Assembly (NCBI GenBank): GCA_963728565.1
Contig: CAVSLC010000019.1
Coordinates: 128,001 to 192,000, forward strand
DNA length: 64,000 nt
Direction: 5' to 3'
Origin: an uncultured delta proteobacterium
Lineage (GTDB): Bacteria > Desulfobacterota > Binatia > UBA9968
The notes beneath the pieces are model-generated. The model was given only the letters and a program-made list of their open reading frames with translations. It did not search any database and was not told the DNA's origin. Below, piece after piece: positions 8,862 to 13,504 of the stretch. A program made the position numbers and the translations under genes. Numbering within the stretch: position 1 is the first letter of the stretch; every line of letters starts with the position of its first letter.

Positions 8862-11259
8862 ATGACCGATCACACAGAACGTTCGCACAGGGTGCGCGGC
8901 TACTGTGCGCTTTGCACGGCTCACTGCGCAACTATCGCAACAGTCGAAGACGGTAAGGTAACTCGCCTCGATGCGGACCATGATCATCCCAACGGGGGCG
9001 TGCTGTGCATCAAAGGCAAAGCGGCGCCTGAGTTGGTTTATCATCCCGATCGACTGAATTATCCGCTCAAGCGCACACGCCCGAAAGGCGATGCCGATCC
9101 CGGCTGGCAACGGGTCAGCTGGGATCAGGCCCTGGACGAAATCGCCGAGCGGCTGATTTCTATTCGCGAGCGCTTCGGTGCGCGCGCAGTCGCCTTGGCC
9201 AAAGGCACACGCGGCGGCACATCCGTTTCCGATGCCGAGCGCTGGCTGGCGCGCTTTCTCAACAGCTTTGGAAGCCCCAACTGGGTTTCCACTACGCATG
9301 TTTGTAACTGGCACAAGGATACCGGTTTTAGCTACACGTTCGGCGTGGAAATTCCCACGCCCGACGTAGCTCAAAGCAACGCCTTTCTTCTCTGGGGTCA
9401 CAACCCGAGCTCGACGTCTTTGATTCTAGCTCATGACATCGTTGCGGCGAAAAAACGCGGCATGAAAATCGTCGCCGTCGATCCACGGCGCATAGGAACT
9501 GCGGCGCAAGCGGACGTTCTGCTGCAAGTTAGGCCCGGCGCGGATGGCGCATTGGCGTTGGCTCTGATCGATGTTGTCATCGAAGAAAAACTCTACGACC
9601 GCAAGTTCGTGAGTCAATGGACTAACGGGCCGCTTCTCGTGCGAACCGATACCGGGACGGCTTTGACGGAAGCCGATCTCATGATCGATGGATCACCGCA
9701 ACGATTTATCGTATGGGACGAAAGCGCCGATGCTCCTGTTATGTATGATGCAAGCTCCGGTAGTTTCGAAAAGTCGTCGGTCCGGCCTGCACTGATGGGT
9801 GAGCGCAGTATCAAAACGAAAACCGGCCAAGAAATTCTCTGCCAGCCGGTGTTCGCCTCGCTTGCGGTCGCTTGCAGCGACTCATAATGCTGCGCGCTCC
9901 CAAGCTATCACTTGGGTGTCCCGTGAGAAAGTCAGGCAGGCGGCGCATCTGCTGGCGGCGAATCGACCGGTCAGCTTGTATATGCACAATGGCGTGGGGC
10001 AGCACACCAATGCGACACAGACCAGTCGGGCGATTGCAACGCTGTACGCGCTTTTAGGGGATTTTGACCGGCCCGGCGGCAACGTAGTTTTCCCTAAGGC
10101 GCCGGTCAACGCTGTCTCGGGTAAAGAATTTCTGCCACAGGAAGTCGCACTCCAGAGAATTGGGCGCGAGCGCAAACCGCTTGGACCACCGGCGAAACCC
10201 GGCAATTGCGCCGCGTACGACATTTTTACCGCCATCCTCGAAGGCATTCCGTATCCGGTCAAGGCAGTTTTGAATTTCGGCTCCAATACCATTATGTCTA
10301 CCGGCGATTCCCAGCGGGCGCGTGAGGCATTTCGCGCTCTCGACTTTGCTGTGGCCACCGAGCTATTCATGACGCCTACAGCGGAACTCTGCGATTATGT
10401 CTTGCCGGCCACAAGCTTTCTTGAGATGGGCAATTTAGCCGCCGGATTTGAGCACCGGCCAAAAGGAAAACTTCATTTACAATATCGCCCGGCAGTGGTT
10501 CCCCCTCTGGCTGAGCGACGTTCGGATACCTGGATGATCTTCGAATTAGCTAAACGCGTGGGTCGCGGCCGTGAGTTCTGGGAAGGCGATATAGAAGCTG
10601 GCTACGAGCACGAGTTGCAGCCGACCGGCGTAACCCTTGCGCAACTCGAAAGGTCTGCCGGAGGAATCAGCGTTGCCGCGACGCCGCGTTATCGAAAATT
10701 CGCCGCAAACAATGAGCACGGCATTGCTCGCGGGTTTAACACGCCGGATAAGAAAGTGGAGATCTACTCGCATACGTTTGCCGCTCATGGCTTTTCGCCT
10801 CTGCCCGAGTATGTGGAACCTTTGATCGGCCCAGTCAGCCGGCGCGATCTGGCCGACGAATACCCGCTGGTGCTGACCAACGCAAAATTTACAACTTACA
10901 TCCATAGCCAGCTGCGCGGTCTCTCCAGTCTGCGTAAGTCATCGCCGGAGCCAACCGCGGATATTCATCCCGATACAGCAGCGCCTTACGGAATCAAGAA
11001 TCGTGACTGGATGATCATCGAAAGCCCTCGTGGCGCGATCACCGCACGGGCGCGTGTCACGGACGCTATAGCGCCGGGTGTCGTCTGTTGCCAGCATGGG
11101 TGGTGGCAGGACTGTAAGCAACTCGACCTTCCCGGCTACGCCTCGGTCGGGATTGGTTCGGCAAACCCGAGCCTGCTAATTGGCTCTGATGTCGCCGATC
11201 CGATCAGCGGCTCGCTGCCGCATCGATCTTATCTCTGTCGTGTGCGACCGGCAGAGTAA
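8862..11259 (+). CDS. Molybdopterin (Mo/W-bisPGD, DMSO reductase superfamily) oxidoreductase; frameshift near 9885
   Basis: N-terminal 4Fe-4S motif CALCTAHC...LCIKG, YHPDRLNYPLKRT, WGHNP, VDPRR, DYVLPA, and C-terminal molydop-binding HSQLR/IHPDTA. No Tat signal. Confidence 0.9.
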
Positions 11260-11407
11260 CACTTGCCAGCTGGCCGTCCGGTTGGCAAAGAGCGACGAAA
11301 AACTTAGAGTTCGTTCATCGTATCTTAAGAGAGGTCTAAATTACGTTTTTCGTAAAAGAGTCAGTGAAAGCGCATCCGACGAAGAGAGCTTAGCGAAATA
11401 AACTTCG

Positions 11408-11441
11408 TTGACATCTGCCGCAGTCCGGGAGAGTATCGTCT
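11408..11441 (+). promoter_or_regulatory. Putative sigma70 promoter giving a leaderless transcript at ATG 11442
   Basis: Perfect TTGACA at 11408-11413, weak -10 (GAGTAT at N17), 28 nt from the -35 box to the ATG, and no SD. Confidence 0.5.
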
Positions 11442-11744
11442 ATGCTCCGAAAACGGCTGGCGCTGTTGCTCGCTCTTTCGTGGGTGATTCTTTCCGGATA
11501 CGACGTCATTGAAGATTTGGATTTCCCGGACCGGATTGGGCTCCACAATTCCGCCGATACTCTTTTCCGCGGCTCCGGATCAGCGGGTCTCCTCGCTGGC
11601 AACATCGTCGAATCTGCGGACCGCCCGCTTCTGCGTTACGCGAGCTTGCCCGAGCATTATCTTGAGTTCACTGCCAGCTATGTCCCCGGCCTCTCTCACA
11701 AAGTCTTCAAGCTTCACAAAGTCAACCAAGTCTATTTGATCTGA
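11442..11744 (+). CDS. 100-aa hypothetical protein with N-terminal signal/TM segment; candidate regulatory leader peptide
   Basis: MLRKRLALLLALSWVILSGYDVIEDLDFP...KLHKVNQVYLI. Paralog remnant at 13680-13956. Confidence 0.7.
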   Translation: MLRKRLALLLALSWVILSGYDVIEDLDFPDRIGLHNSADTLFRGSGSAGLLAGNIVESADRPLLRYASLPEHYLEFTASYVPGLSHKVFKLHKVNQVYLI

Positions 11745-11749
11745 GCGCT

Positions 11750-11859
11750 TCATCTGTCTTTCGTTCTCCCACTCTAGACTCCGCTAAGTTTCGCCCCAGA
11801 GAGCGCGATCGGCTGCGGCTGGTTGGTGCTAAAAGTATCGAGACGCAAGGAGACGATGA
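11750..11859 (+). promoter_or_regulatory. Putative anti-SD/SD pairing occluding the RBS and start of the 34-aa ORF
   Basis: tcatctgtctttcgttctc (11750-11768) can pair by eye with gagacgcaaggagacgatga (11840-11859), about 17 pairs including G-U. Confidence 0.45.
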
Positions 11860-11960
11860 TGGCTGATTTCCCGTTATGGTTGAAAGGTATGGTCTGGTTG
11901 GTCGTAGGTTCTACGGCCTTTTATGCGGCTGCTCAGATTCTATACTCGTTGTTAAATTAA
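11856..11960 (+). CDS. 34-aa single-pass small membrane protein (absent from ORF track)
   Basis: AAGGAG SD, then MMADFPLWLKGMVWLVVGSTAFYAAAQILYSLLN*, with one hydrophobic helix. Confidence 0.7.
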   Translation: MMADFPLWLKGMVWLVVGSTAFYAAAQILYSLLN

Positions 11961-12181
11961 CCGGCGTTTGTAGATAGCGCAGCAGTGTGGCGCGTTTTTC
12001 TACCGTTTGCCTAACTGCTTGCTGCGTTTCATCTTGCATCGGTCACTTGCCGTGGTCGAAAAAATGGCAAGTCCGCCTACGACGATTTTGCCGCCAGTGA
12101 ATAGCGTGCCGCTCTAAAAACACGCTCGTTGGATCCGCTCAAGTCGGACATCATTCTCTACCCGTCAGTCTGTGGATCAAG

Positions 12182-13504
12182 TTAAGCCTCCTCCGGGCTC
12201 TCTTCATTTGTCACGTGTGATACAAGTACTTTATCAATGCGCTTGCCGTCCATATCGACGATCTCAAACCGCAAACCATTCCACTCAAAGAATTCCGATA
12301 CCGACGGCACGCGACCCATCCTGGTAAAGATAAAACCGCCCAGGGTTTGATAGGCGTCTTGCTTTTCTCCTGGGAGGCTGTCGAGATCAAAAATTTCTTT
12401 GAACTCGTCGACCGGGATCATTCCATCCACCAGCCATGAGCCGTCGGGGCGTTGCACAGCCTTCGGCGGCGTTACGGTTTCGCCGAACGGCATATCGCCG
12501 GCGATAGCTTCGAGGACATCGTGATGGGTCAGCAACCCCTCAATGCCCCCATACTCGTCTACTACCAGCACCAGATGGCTGCCTGAGCGTTTGATATAGT
12601 CGAGCACCTGCAACGCGGTCAATGTGCGCGGCACCAGCACCGGTGCCTGTAAAGATGACGATAGGTCTATTGGCTTGCCGTACAGCGCGTTCGACAGAAG
12701 ATCCTTGGCCTGGGTGACGCCGACTAAATTATCGAGGCTGCCGTTGCCGACCGGAAACCGGGAATGTCCGCTCTCGGAGATCCTGCTGCGAATCTCTTCA
12801 ATCGAATCGCTTTGATCCAACCAAACGATCTGGGTGCGCGGCGTCATCAGCGCGCGCGCGCTTTTATCGCCCAGCTCAATAACCGCCTCGATCATATCCT
12901 GCTCGCTCTCTTCGAAAACTCCCGCTGCGGTTCCTTGTTGAATCAATCTTTTGATTTCTTCTTCGGTGACCGGAGGCTCCTGAGAGGGCGGACTGCCGAG
13001 CAACCTGAAGATCACATCCGTTGACGCTGTCAAAAGCCGAACGATGGGCGAAGAGATGGCCGACAACAGTCGCATCGGTCCCGCCATAAAAGTTGCGATT
13101 GTCTCCGCATGACTCAAGGCGATTCGTTTGGGGACCAATTCGCCGAGCACGACGGAGAAGTACGTAATGCAAATGACGACGGCGCCGAGAGCGATTGTCC
13201 TGCTGTAAGGTTCGATGGCGGGAATTCCTGCCAAGAATGCAGCGAGTTCCGAAGCTAGGGTCCGCCCGCCGAAGGCGCCGGCGAGAATACCTACAAGCGT
13301 GATGCCGATCTGAACCGTGGAAAAGAATTGGTTGGGATTCTCGGCTAGCTCTAAAGCTGATCTGGCGCTGGCGCTGCCTTTTTCCGCCCAATCTCGAAGC
13401 CGTGATTTGCGCGCGGCGACGATTGCAAGTTCAGACATGGCGAACAGTCCGTTGGCGATAATCAAGAAGATTATCACGATGGATTCAAATGCGATGGTTG
13501 TCAT
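12182..13504 (-). CDS. Hemolysin-family / CNNM-CorC protein (DUF21 + 2xCBS + CorC_HlyC), probable Mg2+/Co2+ exporter
   Basis: NGLFAMSELAIV, STVQIGIT, LGELVPKRIA, MTPR, HSRFPV, VVDEYGGIEGLLT, TLGGFIF, MDGKRIDKV. Confidence 0.93.
   Translation of the reverse strand: MTTIAFESIVIIFLIIANGLFAMSELAIVAARKSRLRDWAEKGSASARSALELAENPNQFFSTVQIGITLVGILAGAFGGRTLASELAAFLAGIPAIEPYSRTIALGAVVICITYFSVVLGELVPKRIALSHAETIATFMAGPMRLLSAISSPIVRLLTASTDVIFRLLGSPPSQEPPVTEEEIKRLIQQGTAAGVFEESEQDMIEAVIELGDKSARALMTPRTQIVWLDQSDSIEEIRSRISESGHSRFPVGNGSLDNLVGVTQAKDLLSNALYGKPIDLSSSLQAPVLVPRTLTALQVLDYIKRSGSHLVLVVDEYGGIEGLLTHHDVLEAIAGDMPFGETVTPPKAVQRPDGSWLVDGMIPVDEFKEIFDLDSLPGEKQDAYQTLGGFIFTRMGRVPSVSEFFEWNGLRFEIVDMDGKRIDKVLVSHVTNEESPEEA

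Follow-up and report, generated by a model that had tools for sequence, protein, structure and literature searches.

A conserved leader peptide and a Shine-Dalgarno-sequestering helix in Binatia: a candidate exported nascent-peptide regulator

Regulatory exported nascent peptides have so far been described in connection with the Sec/YidC machinery and, of late, with copper (CutF, CruR). Does a short module in an uncultured member of the Binatia work along the same lines? The module lies at positions 11408-11960 of a 64,000-nucleotide (nt) stretch of contig CAVSLC010000019.1, hereafter the window, and consists of a promoter, a 100-residue open reading frame (ORF1), a spacer and a second, very short reading frame (ORF2). 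A preliminary description of this DNA proposed that ORF1 is an unrecognised leader with a membrane-targeting N-terminus, translated from a leaderless transcript, whose C-terminal end would stall the ribosome and free a sequestered ribosome-binding site (RBS) in front of ORF2.

The locus and its relatives combine a defined anatomy, selection on the motifs of the leader peptide, a helix conserved between loci and a position at the head of co-oriented genes. These observations point to a self-contained bicistronic switch, in which a termination-proximal pause, set by the tail of ORF1 and modulated by export, would open ORF2's Shine-Dalgarno (SD) sequence. Such a switch is a serious possibility, held tentatively and falling a little short of being probable. 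The features on which it is built are the following.

11408..11413, + strand: -35 hexamer TTGACA of the module's own promoter, read in the sequence
11431..11436, + strand: -10-like hexamer GAGTAT, 17 nt past the -35 hexamer and 5 nt before the ATG at 11442
11442..11744, + strand: ORF1, 100-residue leader peptide, export predicted, stop codon TGA at 11742-11744
11442..11522, + strand: codons 1-27 of ORF1, with the n-region MLRKR, a hydrophobic core, an invariant LSG and the acidic YDVIEDLD, conserved in three family alignments
11601..11618, + strand: mid motif NIVESA of ORF1, residues 54-59, conserved in distant homologs
11709..11741, + strand: C-terminal motif KLHKVNQVYLI of ORF1, running straight into the stop codon, from the family-wide consensus
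11738..11768, + strand: 5' arm (anti-SD) of the spacer helix, comprising the final two codons of ORF1, its stop codon and a pyrimidine-rich tract, from the RNAalifold consensus
11788..11825, + strand: two small internal hairpins, 11788-11804 and 11806-11825 (RNAalifold columns 60-76 and 78-97)
11840..11868, + strand: 3' arm of the helix, made of the SD AAGGAGA (11847-11853), ATG ATG (11856-11861) and ORF2 codons 3-5, from the RNAalifold consensus
11856..11960, + strand: ORF2, 33- or 34-residue single-helix membrane peptide, (M)MADFPLWLK followed by a hydrophobic helix, starting at ATG 11856 or 11859

The ORF1 leader and its conserved motifs

The ORF1 protein begins MLRKRLALLLALSWVILSGYDVIEDLD and terminates KLHKVNQVYLI-TGA. 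A word-indexed search returned 41 close homologs, nearly all of about 100 residues and carrying neither names nor Pfam domains, and a profile search of 1.84 billion representatives extended the family to 210 clusters (E<=1e-3). Most of the 149 representatives listed from these clusters match end to end, with the last profile position falling on the last residue; in 118 of them the final residues are hydrophobic-[LIR]-[ILMV], and the remaining 31 mostly end in VYLI or VFQI. Pfam (E<=1) and NCBIfam hold no family for ORF1, nor for ORF2. In the Protein Atlas, the clusters to which ORF1 itself belongs are unnamed, and the named neighbours (a DUF2946 cluster, the SecM family and CzcI) score 0.90-0.91, which is chance level, and count as no more than leads. 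Two matches in Neobacillus (L006, L007) were judged spurious, as the identity of 45% extends across 33 residues.

Judging from record titles ('delta proteobacterium' metagenome-assembled genomes), the family is found mainly in Binatia. The close-homolog profile matches 18 of 401 sampled genomes of the class, 16 of which are among the 63 scored genomes of a single family, and a broader profile finds a match in 33 of 90 genomes of that family. The preliminary description looked for several copies per genome; up to five occur in relatives, but the genome of the window has a single ORF1 and one divergent relative that shares its C-terminal motif.

The diverse alignment of ORF1 (27 sequences, mean column identity 43%) retains three conserved blocks only, namely MxRKxLAxLLxxSWxxLSGxDxxEDLD (residues 1-27), NNIxESA and the extreme C-terminus, and the linkers between them are variable and contain insertions and deletions (indels). 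The C-terminal consensus is [KR]xx[KR][LI][HY]KLx[R]V[FY]LI-stop, i.e., LHKLxRVFLI-stop. Conservation is thus concentrated where the preliminary description expected it: in the targeting segment at the N-terminus, DxxEDLD included, and in KLH...LI-stop at the C-terminus. Among 11 close sequences, the ratio of nonsynonymous to synonymous change (pN/pS) is 0.38 for ORF1 overall, with 0.22 at the N-terminus, 0.18 in the mid motif and 0.17 at the C-terminus, as well as 0.74 and 0.50 in the linkers. Synonymous change is high across the last 14 codons (pS = 0.47), and beside a pN/pS of 0.17 this indicates that the tail is kept as amino acids and not as RNA. Selection therefore acts on the peptide motifs of ORF1 at the amino-acid level, and the 100-residue frame is a real gene with a conserved family.

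The spacing of the motifs is also constrained. In 64 of 84 representatives, the distance between the Glu of NNIxESA and the C-terminus is exactly 43 residues, despite the variable sequence between them, and the distance from the N-terminal motif to this Glu varies from 33 to 36 residues. By our own reasoning, this 43-residue ruler corresponds to about one length of the ribosomal exit tunnel. AlphaFold2, supplied with a 106-row alignment, predicts a confident helix at residues 2-30, with block-mean predicted local distance difference test scores (pLDDT) of 95, 97 and 79; beyond the helix ORF1 is modelled as unfolded (pLDDT ~50, predicted template modelling score 0.29), with no globular fold. 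About 70 residues separate the signal (residue 19) from the C-terminal motif (residue 90). The hydrophobic N-terminal segment of the preliminary description is conserved, but the signal anchor proposed there is less apt: in our reading, the resemblance is closer to a cleavable Sec signal peptide, because an acidic residue follows the invariant LSG.

Selection on the peptide can also be explained if ORF1 is a conventional small protein, exported or anchored in the membrane, that acts after its release, together with ORF2 and/or CNNM-type transporters. The helix would then provide plain translational coupling, and the tail, -VFLI-COOH, would be a ligand for a PDZ domain or a tail-specific protease, or else a partner-binding helix. 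Purifying selection on both ORF1 and ORF2 as proteins is in line with this explanation. However, ORF1 is near neutral outside its three short motifs, contains indels and has no predicted fold, and together with the points raised below this leaves a role after release somewhat unlikely.

In one relative (L018, G359:C629, positions 405-704), an otherwise intact ORF1 carries an in-frame TGA at the codon of the conserved Trp14, which may reflect a pseudogene, a sequencing error or read-through.

The spacer helix, the promoter and ORF2

ORF2 (MMADFPLWLKGMVWLVVGSTAFYAAAQILYSLLN) is preceded by its own SD, AAGGAGA at 11847-11853, with ATGATG following at 11856-11861. The preliminary description noted that the stretch after the ORF1 stop is complementary to the SD and start of the next frame, and this complementarity is real and longer than was claimed, as all 25 of the proposed pairs between 11738-11768 and 11840-11868 are standard pairs. 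Across 13 close loci, RNAalifold returns the long-range helix as the consensus structure, enclosing the two small hairpins, in which one-sided changes leave the pairs intact. In the helix alignment, 96.9% of cells are paired, compared to 25-53% with slid partners. Three pairs carry double-sided (compensatory) changes, a count that none of 500 shuffles reached, and 12 of the 25 pairs are invariant across the 13 loci.

Pairing also favours cognate arms. In 16 diverse loci, the post-stop tract pairs better with its own SD region than with the SD regions of the others (permutation p = 0.00075), an effect carried by the window group, L044, L031 and L040. In ensemble folds, 22 of 37 loci are expected to form at least 12 arm-arm pairs (Wilcoxon p = 0.013 vs. 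a shuffled arm). Three genomes in the collection are flagged as unpublished (G341, with L020 and L038; G393, with L031; G413, with L074 and L096), and no conclusion rests on them alone. Rfam has no match at E<=1 within 10800-12600 of the window, and none at the gathering score in 10 related loci, the TerC locus described below included; known riboswitches are among the families covered. Any terminating ribosome would be expected to open part of the 5' arm, so that a special pause would not strictly be needed, which suits an ORF1 protein that acts after release.

The tract that forms the 5' arm is distinctive in composition. Pyrimidines make up 78% of the first 15 nt after the ORF1 stop in the family loci, 68% of the next 15 nt and ~50% beyond. 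Over the 30 nt after the stop, the mean pyrimidine fraction is 0.73 in 46 family loci vs. 0.49 +/- 0.10 for 3,850 long ORFs in the genome of the window, and a fraction of at least 0.70 is found in 74% of the family loci vs. 2.9% of the genome's ORFs.

This composition raises the possibility that the module is mainly a Rho-dependent attenuator similar to TnaC or CruR, in which the C-rich tract is a Rho loading site that a ribosome at the stop codon would mask, transcription otherwise terminating within the 100-430-nt spacer. From -60 to +30 around the stop, the 46 loci are G-poor and C-rich (G 0.12-0.17, C 0.29-0.37), the spacers are long, the genome encodes Rho (PF07497, E = 4e-35), and for CruR an arrest at a C-terminal motif is described that is coupled to Rho-dependent termination (PMC9426467). 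The tract is also retained where the next SD does not match it. However, the G-poor stretch covers only ~90 nt, partly within coding sequence, and where ORF2 or TerC follows, the tract shows specific complementarity to the SD, a property that Rho control need not have. Some of the spacers without ORF2 contain hairpins resembling intrinsic terminators instead. Rho as the main output is thus quite improbable, whereas a Rho-loading role in the copies of ORF1 without ORF2 is a live alternative, because the tract is G-poor and C-rich and Rho is encoded.

As the preliminary description stated, TTGACA is located 28 nt 5' of the ATG at 11442, and no purine-rich SD is present between the TTGACA/GAGTAT region and this ATG. 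The geometry is kept in relatives: of 41 non-redundant loci that start with ATG, 39 have a TTGACA (matching at 5 or more of the 6 positions, and perfectly in 35 loci) that ends 27-34 nt 5' of the ORF1 ATG, with a mode of 29-30 nt. After a 17-nt spacer, the relatives feature GATAnT, GATGAT or GATTAT at the -10 position, followed by 5-8 nt and then the ATG. From this promoter geometry alone, the predicted transcript has either no leader or one of at most 3 nt.

ORF2 is itself a recurrent element. The pattern M[EA]DFPxWLK plus one hydrophobic helix is found 74-212 nt 3' of ORF1 in 30 of 43 loci, L029 also carries ORF2 as found by profile, and the ORF2 profile matches 37 of 63 genomes of the family. 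A further 20 ORF2 loci were not reached by the first ORF1 profile. ORF2 was found again by pattern in 18 of these, and 17 of the 18 have an upstream frame of ~100 residues with an N-terminal hydrophobic segment and an acidic mid motif, which ends 108-179 nt 5' of ORF2 in VFLI, VLLI, SLLI, TLLI, VWRI, VLRI, KLRI, TFRI or YLL. The pN/pS of ORF2 is 0.23 overall and 0.05 for residues 1-11. Only one cluster among 5.8 billion proteins, of 33 residues, holds ORF2 (the query being a natural, TTG-extended ORF of 45 residues), which says little because small ORFs are rarely called. Protein Atlas matches to ORF2 score 0.85 or less. A complex prediction for ORF1 with ORF2 scored 0.00 and is counted neither for nor against an interaction.

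A 33-residue hydrophobic peptide with a sequestered SD could be a type-I-toxin-like membrane peptide, silenced by fold-back and coupled to an upstream frame as in hok/mok, so that the module would be a selfish or stress-response cassette. The module has its own promoter and varied upstream contexts, and several copies are present in some genomes. Nevertheless, the N-terminus of ORF2 is strongly conserved (see the pN/pS above), genomes usually have one copy of ORF2, it is ORF1 and not ORF2 that occurs in extra copies, and the neighbours are housekeeping transporters and not mobile elements. Judged on conservation, copy number and neighbourhood, a toxin cassette is very improbable.

Just past ORF2, at 11977-11999 (+ strand), GCGC-N9-GCGC precedes a G and T5; this element resembles a weak terminator and was not called by the scan. 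A strong GC-rich hairpin occupies the equivalent position in many relatives. About 130 nt 3' of ORF2 are conserved (window 11961-12181 vs. L002, L003, L004, L010, L013 and L066). After that stretch, several relatives have a gene for a PMT_2 (ArnT-like) glycosyltransferase (588 residues in L003), with only a 112-residue frame in L002. This gene is missing from the window, where the convergent CNNM gene follows directly.

Leaders before TerC and copies without ORF2

A second leader family shares the tail of ORF1. In a six-frame scan of the genome of the window, 2 of 46,926 frames end in a loose form of the tail pattern: ORF1 and one other, which is located outside the window.

G000 contig C25:54880-55200, - strand: second leader ORF, 106 residues, ending NLHRLLRVFRI-stop (loci L090/L091), from the tail-motif scan

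By hhalign, only the last 13 residues of this leader match the ORF1 profile (E = 5e-5). It has a signal-like N-terminal segment ending in LSGMD and an AESADE motif, and in its close relatives L092 and L093 the sequence past the stop codon is 80% pyrimidine. A homolog is present in 14 of 90 genomes of the family. These leaders comprise ~100-110 residues with a predicted signal peptide and end in LLQVFRI-stop. TerC starts 67-79 nt 3' of the C25 leader and 63-99 nt downstream in most loci of the second family. The next co-oriented frame has the TerC N-terminus in 11 of 11 loci examined, and Pfam confirms TerC in 6 of 6 tested as well as in the window genome's own copy.

The layout of the spacer recurs too. 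In L091, L094, L095, L097 and L098, the tract starting 0-3 nt past the stop and GGAGAAUGGAA upstream of TerC form a duplex of 13-15 bp, with covariation in its outer pairs (ACUUC/GAAGU, ACUUUCC/GGAAAGU, CGCUUCC/GGAAGCG). Because the loci have the SD core in common, the permutation test for cognate pairing in this family (p = 0.052, 8 loci) is weak. If ORF1 is a protein that acts after release, it is left unexplained why leaders of otherwise distinct sequence share this tail and anti-SD layout.

In the window itself, the neighbouring gene is a transporter gene that recurs beside the module.

12182..13504, - strand: convergent CNNM/CorC-type transporter gene (Pfam CNNM, CBS, CorC_HlyC)

CNNM adjoins the module in 10 Pfam-checked loci, co-oriented and downstream in 6 and convergent in 4. 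Where ORF2 is present, the gene 3' of it is a co-oriented CNNM (L027, L031, L070), a convergent CNNM (window, L021, L074, L080), TctA (L030, L069) or PMT_2 (the L003 group). A convergent neighbour points to a functional rather than a cis-regulatory link, and the occurrence of CNNM in both orientations fits a protein that acts after release better than it fits control in cis.

ORF1 copies also persist without ORF2, as would be expected of a protein with a role after release. In 23 of 24 such orphan copies, the exception being L075, a co-oriented ORF starts 43-431 nt downstream. Pfam assigns the genes 3' of the orphan copies, all co-oriented, as follows.

L019, L036, L068: CNNM
L023, L042, L045, L079: TctA
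L039, L078: Trypsin_2 plus PDZ (HtrA-like)
L081: PMT_2
L082: undecaprenyl-diphosphate synthase (UppS)
L077: PAP2
L085: fatty-acid desaturase (FA_desaturase)
L024: Kdo/WaaP kinase
L025: ABC substrate-binding protein
L038, L083: methyltransferases

The relatives' loci thus bear out a consistent position of the leader upstream of co-oriented membrane or transport genes. The HtrA-like genes would suit a tail that is recognized by a PDZ domain after release, but they are found in two related loci only. Furthermore, a function after release does not account for the head-of-operon position of the orphan copies, nor for the pyrimidine tract that these copies retain after the ORF1 stop.

A simple terminator scan of the orphan spacers gave a mixed result, with a hairpin and T-rich tail in 9 of 20. 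Two of the TctA-linked copies (L023, L079) have hairpins of -17.8 and -17.9 kcal/mol with a T-rich tail 33-36 nt past the ORF1 stop, which may be intrinsic attenuators. In L041/L036 (G363:C181), tandem ORF1 paralogs each have a TTGAC(A/G) promoter-like site and are followed by a co-oriented CNNM gene. Upstream of the module, a molybdopterin oxidoreductase gene (8862-11259, + strand) is split into overlapping frames at 8862-9887 and 9799-11259. This suggests a frameshift, due to either a pseudogene or an assembly error, because the syntenic gene in L002 is a single ORF of 798 residues.

The proposed switch and known nascent-peptide systems

How would the bicistronic switch work? Start site, export, pause and sensed signal are all inferred here. 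Transcription from a conserved sigma-70-type promoter would begin at the ORF1 ATG or no more than 3 nt away from it, giving a leaderless transcript. ORF1 would be made as an exported 100-residue peptide with a Sec-type signal and acidic patch, NNIxESA and the C-terminal LHKLxRVFLI. The SD, start and first codons of ORF2 would pair with the end of ORF1 (its last two codons and the stop) plus the 25 nt that follow, and ORF2 would be translationally silent unless a ribosome occupied the end of ORF1, because the helix covers the SD and start of ORF2. The conserved C-terminal residues would lengthen the stay of the ribosome at the stop codon, as a termination-proximal pause or arrest. Co-translational export of the N-terminus would set the length of the pause, which may be modulated by what the acidic motifs meet outside the membrane. 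The pause would couple envelope or ion state to the synthesis of ORF2, and in the paralogous copies the same leader would control CNNM, TctA, PMT_2 and TerC genes.

Several results weigh against this switch. In the window, the energy of the duplex is -20.0 kcal/mol vs. -15.2 kcal/mol for composition-preserving shuffles, a z of only -1.5; the minimum-free-energy structure of 11720-11880 does not contain the anti-SD helix, and this region is no more stable than its shuffles (z = +1.09). Imposing the helix carries a penalty that rises with the length of the context (0.5 kcal/mol at 161 nt, 1.6 kcal/mol at 201 nt and 3.1 kcal/mol at 559 nt, the last being the mRNA), and across these contexts its mean pair probability falls from 0.48 to 0.13 and 0.02; averaged over the stretch from SD to start, the probability of being unpaired is 0.23-0.34 in each of them. 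Since the single-sequence structure is uncompelling, the case for more than chance rests on conservation and not on the window alone. The fold and covariation check suggested in the preliminary description thus yielded a conserved SD-sequestering helix with a few compensatory changes, but one that is itself a near-optimal alternative and not the minimum-free-energy fold. Fewer than 12 arm-arm pairs are expected in 15 of the 37 loci, the p-values given here overstate independence and are upper bounds on the strength of the evidence since the loci are kin, and one of the four strongest cognate pairs (L031) comes from an unpublished genome.

The remaining points concern the promoter, the neighbours and the tail. 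The promoter scan did not call the module's promoter in the window, because GAGTAT matches at 3 of 6 positions only. Contigs from RNA libraries of four metatranscriptome studies cover 11362-11811 in short pieces, two of eight of which begin 5' of the proposed transcription start site, at 11362 and 11410; none of the pieces covers ORF2. These are short contigs from relatives, DNA carry-over is possible, and contigs show neither starts, ends nor expression level; they give no support for an exclusive start at the ATG, yet they cannot refute it either. In addition, CNNM is convergent and not downstream in the window and three other checked loci, the tail of ORF1 resembles no validated arrest motif (no RAPP, PP or Pro-stop), and the tract of the orphan copies is not complementary to the SD of the next gene (mean z = +0.09, 16 loci). 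The tract therefore does something else in these copies, or they work differently. The interpretation offered in the preliminary description is thus supported in part, with most of its proposed checks turning out as it had expected.

Known systems offer a comparison. Fujiwara 2024 describes upstream open reading frames (uORFs) selected for a position upstream of sec or yidC, an N-terminal signal or transmembrane segment, a conserved C-terminus and a spacer of >30 residues, and at NSP-stop, NAP-stop and DGMK-stop it reports ribosomes arrested while the stop codon occupies the A site (PMC10987492). ORF1 has the N-terminal signal (as predicted), the conserved C-terminus and a spacer of >30 residues, and no sec or yidC gene is located downstream in any locus examined. 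An SD-sequestering RNA structure that overlaps the putative stall site is present in ORF2- and TerC-linked loci and absent from the orphan copies. Compared to SecM, MifM, VemP and the Fujiwara clusters, the C-terminal motif is unrelated and the downstream genes are neither sec nor yidC. MifM is of similar size, at ~95 residues. ORF1 has no Pfam match to SecM_small (PF10818), which appears as a neighbour in the Atlas feature space at 0.90.

CutF and CruR offer a similar architecture. CutF is an exported nascent protein that senses extracytoplasmic metal (PMC9973294), and CruR is a second such exported sensor (PMC9426467). Both carry DUF2946 and an extracytoplasmic sensing motif, sense periplasmic copper and act through a conserved C-terminal stalling motif, PPP or RAPP, and CutF-like genes head metal-homeostasis operons (PMC9973294; PMC9426467; 10.1101/2025.02.05.636593). 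The output is the melting of a stem-loop that shields the next RBS for CutF, and Rho-dependent termination for CruR (PMC9973294; PMC9426467). Like these proteins, ORF1 has fewer than 150 residues, a predicted N-terminal Sec signal, a conserved C-terminal motif, a same-strand gene within 1000 nt downstream and an operon-head position before envelope or metal-homeostasis genes. Unlike them, it has no proline, and hence no PP or RAPP, in its C-terminal consensus, in which LHKLxRVFLI runs into the stop; the preliminary description was right that the motif departs from RxPP. The alignments of ORF1 contain no conserved Cys and no His cluster, and feature the acidic DxxEDLD and NNIxESA there instead. 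Further differences are the predicted leaderless mRNA, the spacer of ~110 nt and the targets, which are a 33-residue peptide and CNNM, TctA, TerC and PMT_2 rather than copper genes. ORF1 has no Pfam family at E<=1, DUF2946 included. An Atlas neighbour named DUF2946, whose Pfam family is PF20558/DUF6769, was rejected as its score of 0.91 is chance level. ORF1 thus shares the architecture of CutF and CruR without the residues that define their family, and works like them on paper without being a member.

In TnaC and SpeFL, which are short cytoplasmic termination-arrest peptides, a small molecule is sensed within the ribosomal tunnel. ORF1 resembles them in that its conserved C-terminal residues end at the stop codon, with a C-rich, G-poor tract immediately after, but differs in its length of 100 residues and its predicted export signal. 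In the coat-replicase region of phage MS2, ribosomes that translate the upstream frame melt a long-range helix in which the downstream RBS is hidden, and the ORF1-ORF2 pair is similar in that the upstream frame would open a helix over the downstream RBS. In contrast to ORF1, coupling of the MS2 type needs no conserved C-terminal peptide, export signal or pyrimidine tract common to the paralogs. Overall, the module is probably of the SecM/MifM/CutF/CruR class of regulatory exported nascent peptides, while being a member of none of those families. Among the top-ranked results of a full-text literature search on Binatia/Binatota leaders and on uORFs of TerC, CorB or CNNM, no paper on the ORF1 family was found, subscription journals being outside its coverage.

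A broader version of the switch covers both leader families. In other bacteria, yybP-ykoY riboswitches are located upstream of TerC. The Binatia leaders that end in VF[LR]I-stop might be a leaderless, Sec-targeted class that holds the ribosome at the stop codon, reads the extracytoplasmic state, plausibly divalent cations by means of the DxxEDLD and ESAD patches, switches on the 33-residue peptide, CNNM, TerC and TctA, and takes the place of such riboswitches before TerC. As a joint claim this is unlikely, and divalent cations as the sensed signal are speculation, drawn from the acidic patches and the recurrent CNNM and TerC neighbours.

If confirmed, the bicistronic switch would extend the principle of regulation by exported nascent peptides to a proline-free arrest motif that ends at the stop codon, to leaderless mRNAs and to an uncultured soil lineage. 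It would add new targets, namely ion transporters of the CNNM/CorB and TerC types, TctA and a 33-residue membrane peptide that is almost never annotated. The natural variation within it (two leader families, ~210 clusters and the 43-residue ruler) would be of use for studying how a nascent chain blocks termination. Finally, a role would be found for a conserved micro-protein that escapes gene callers.

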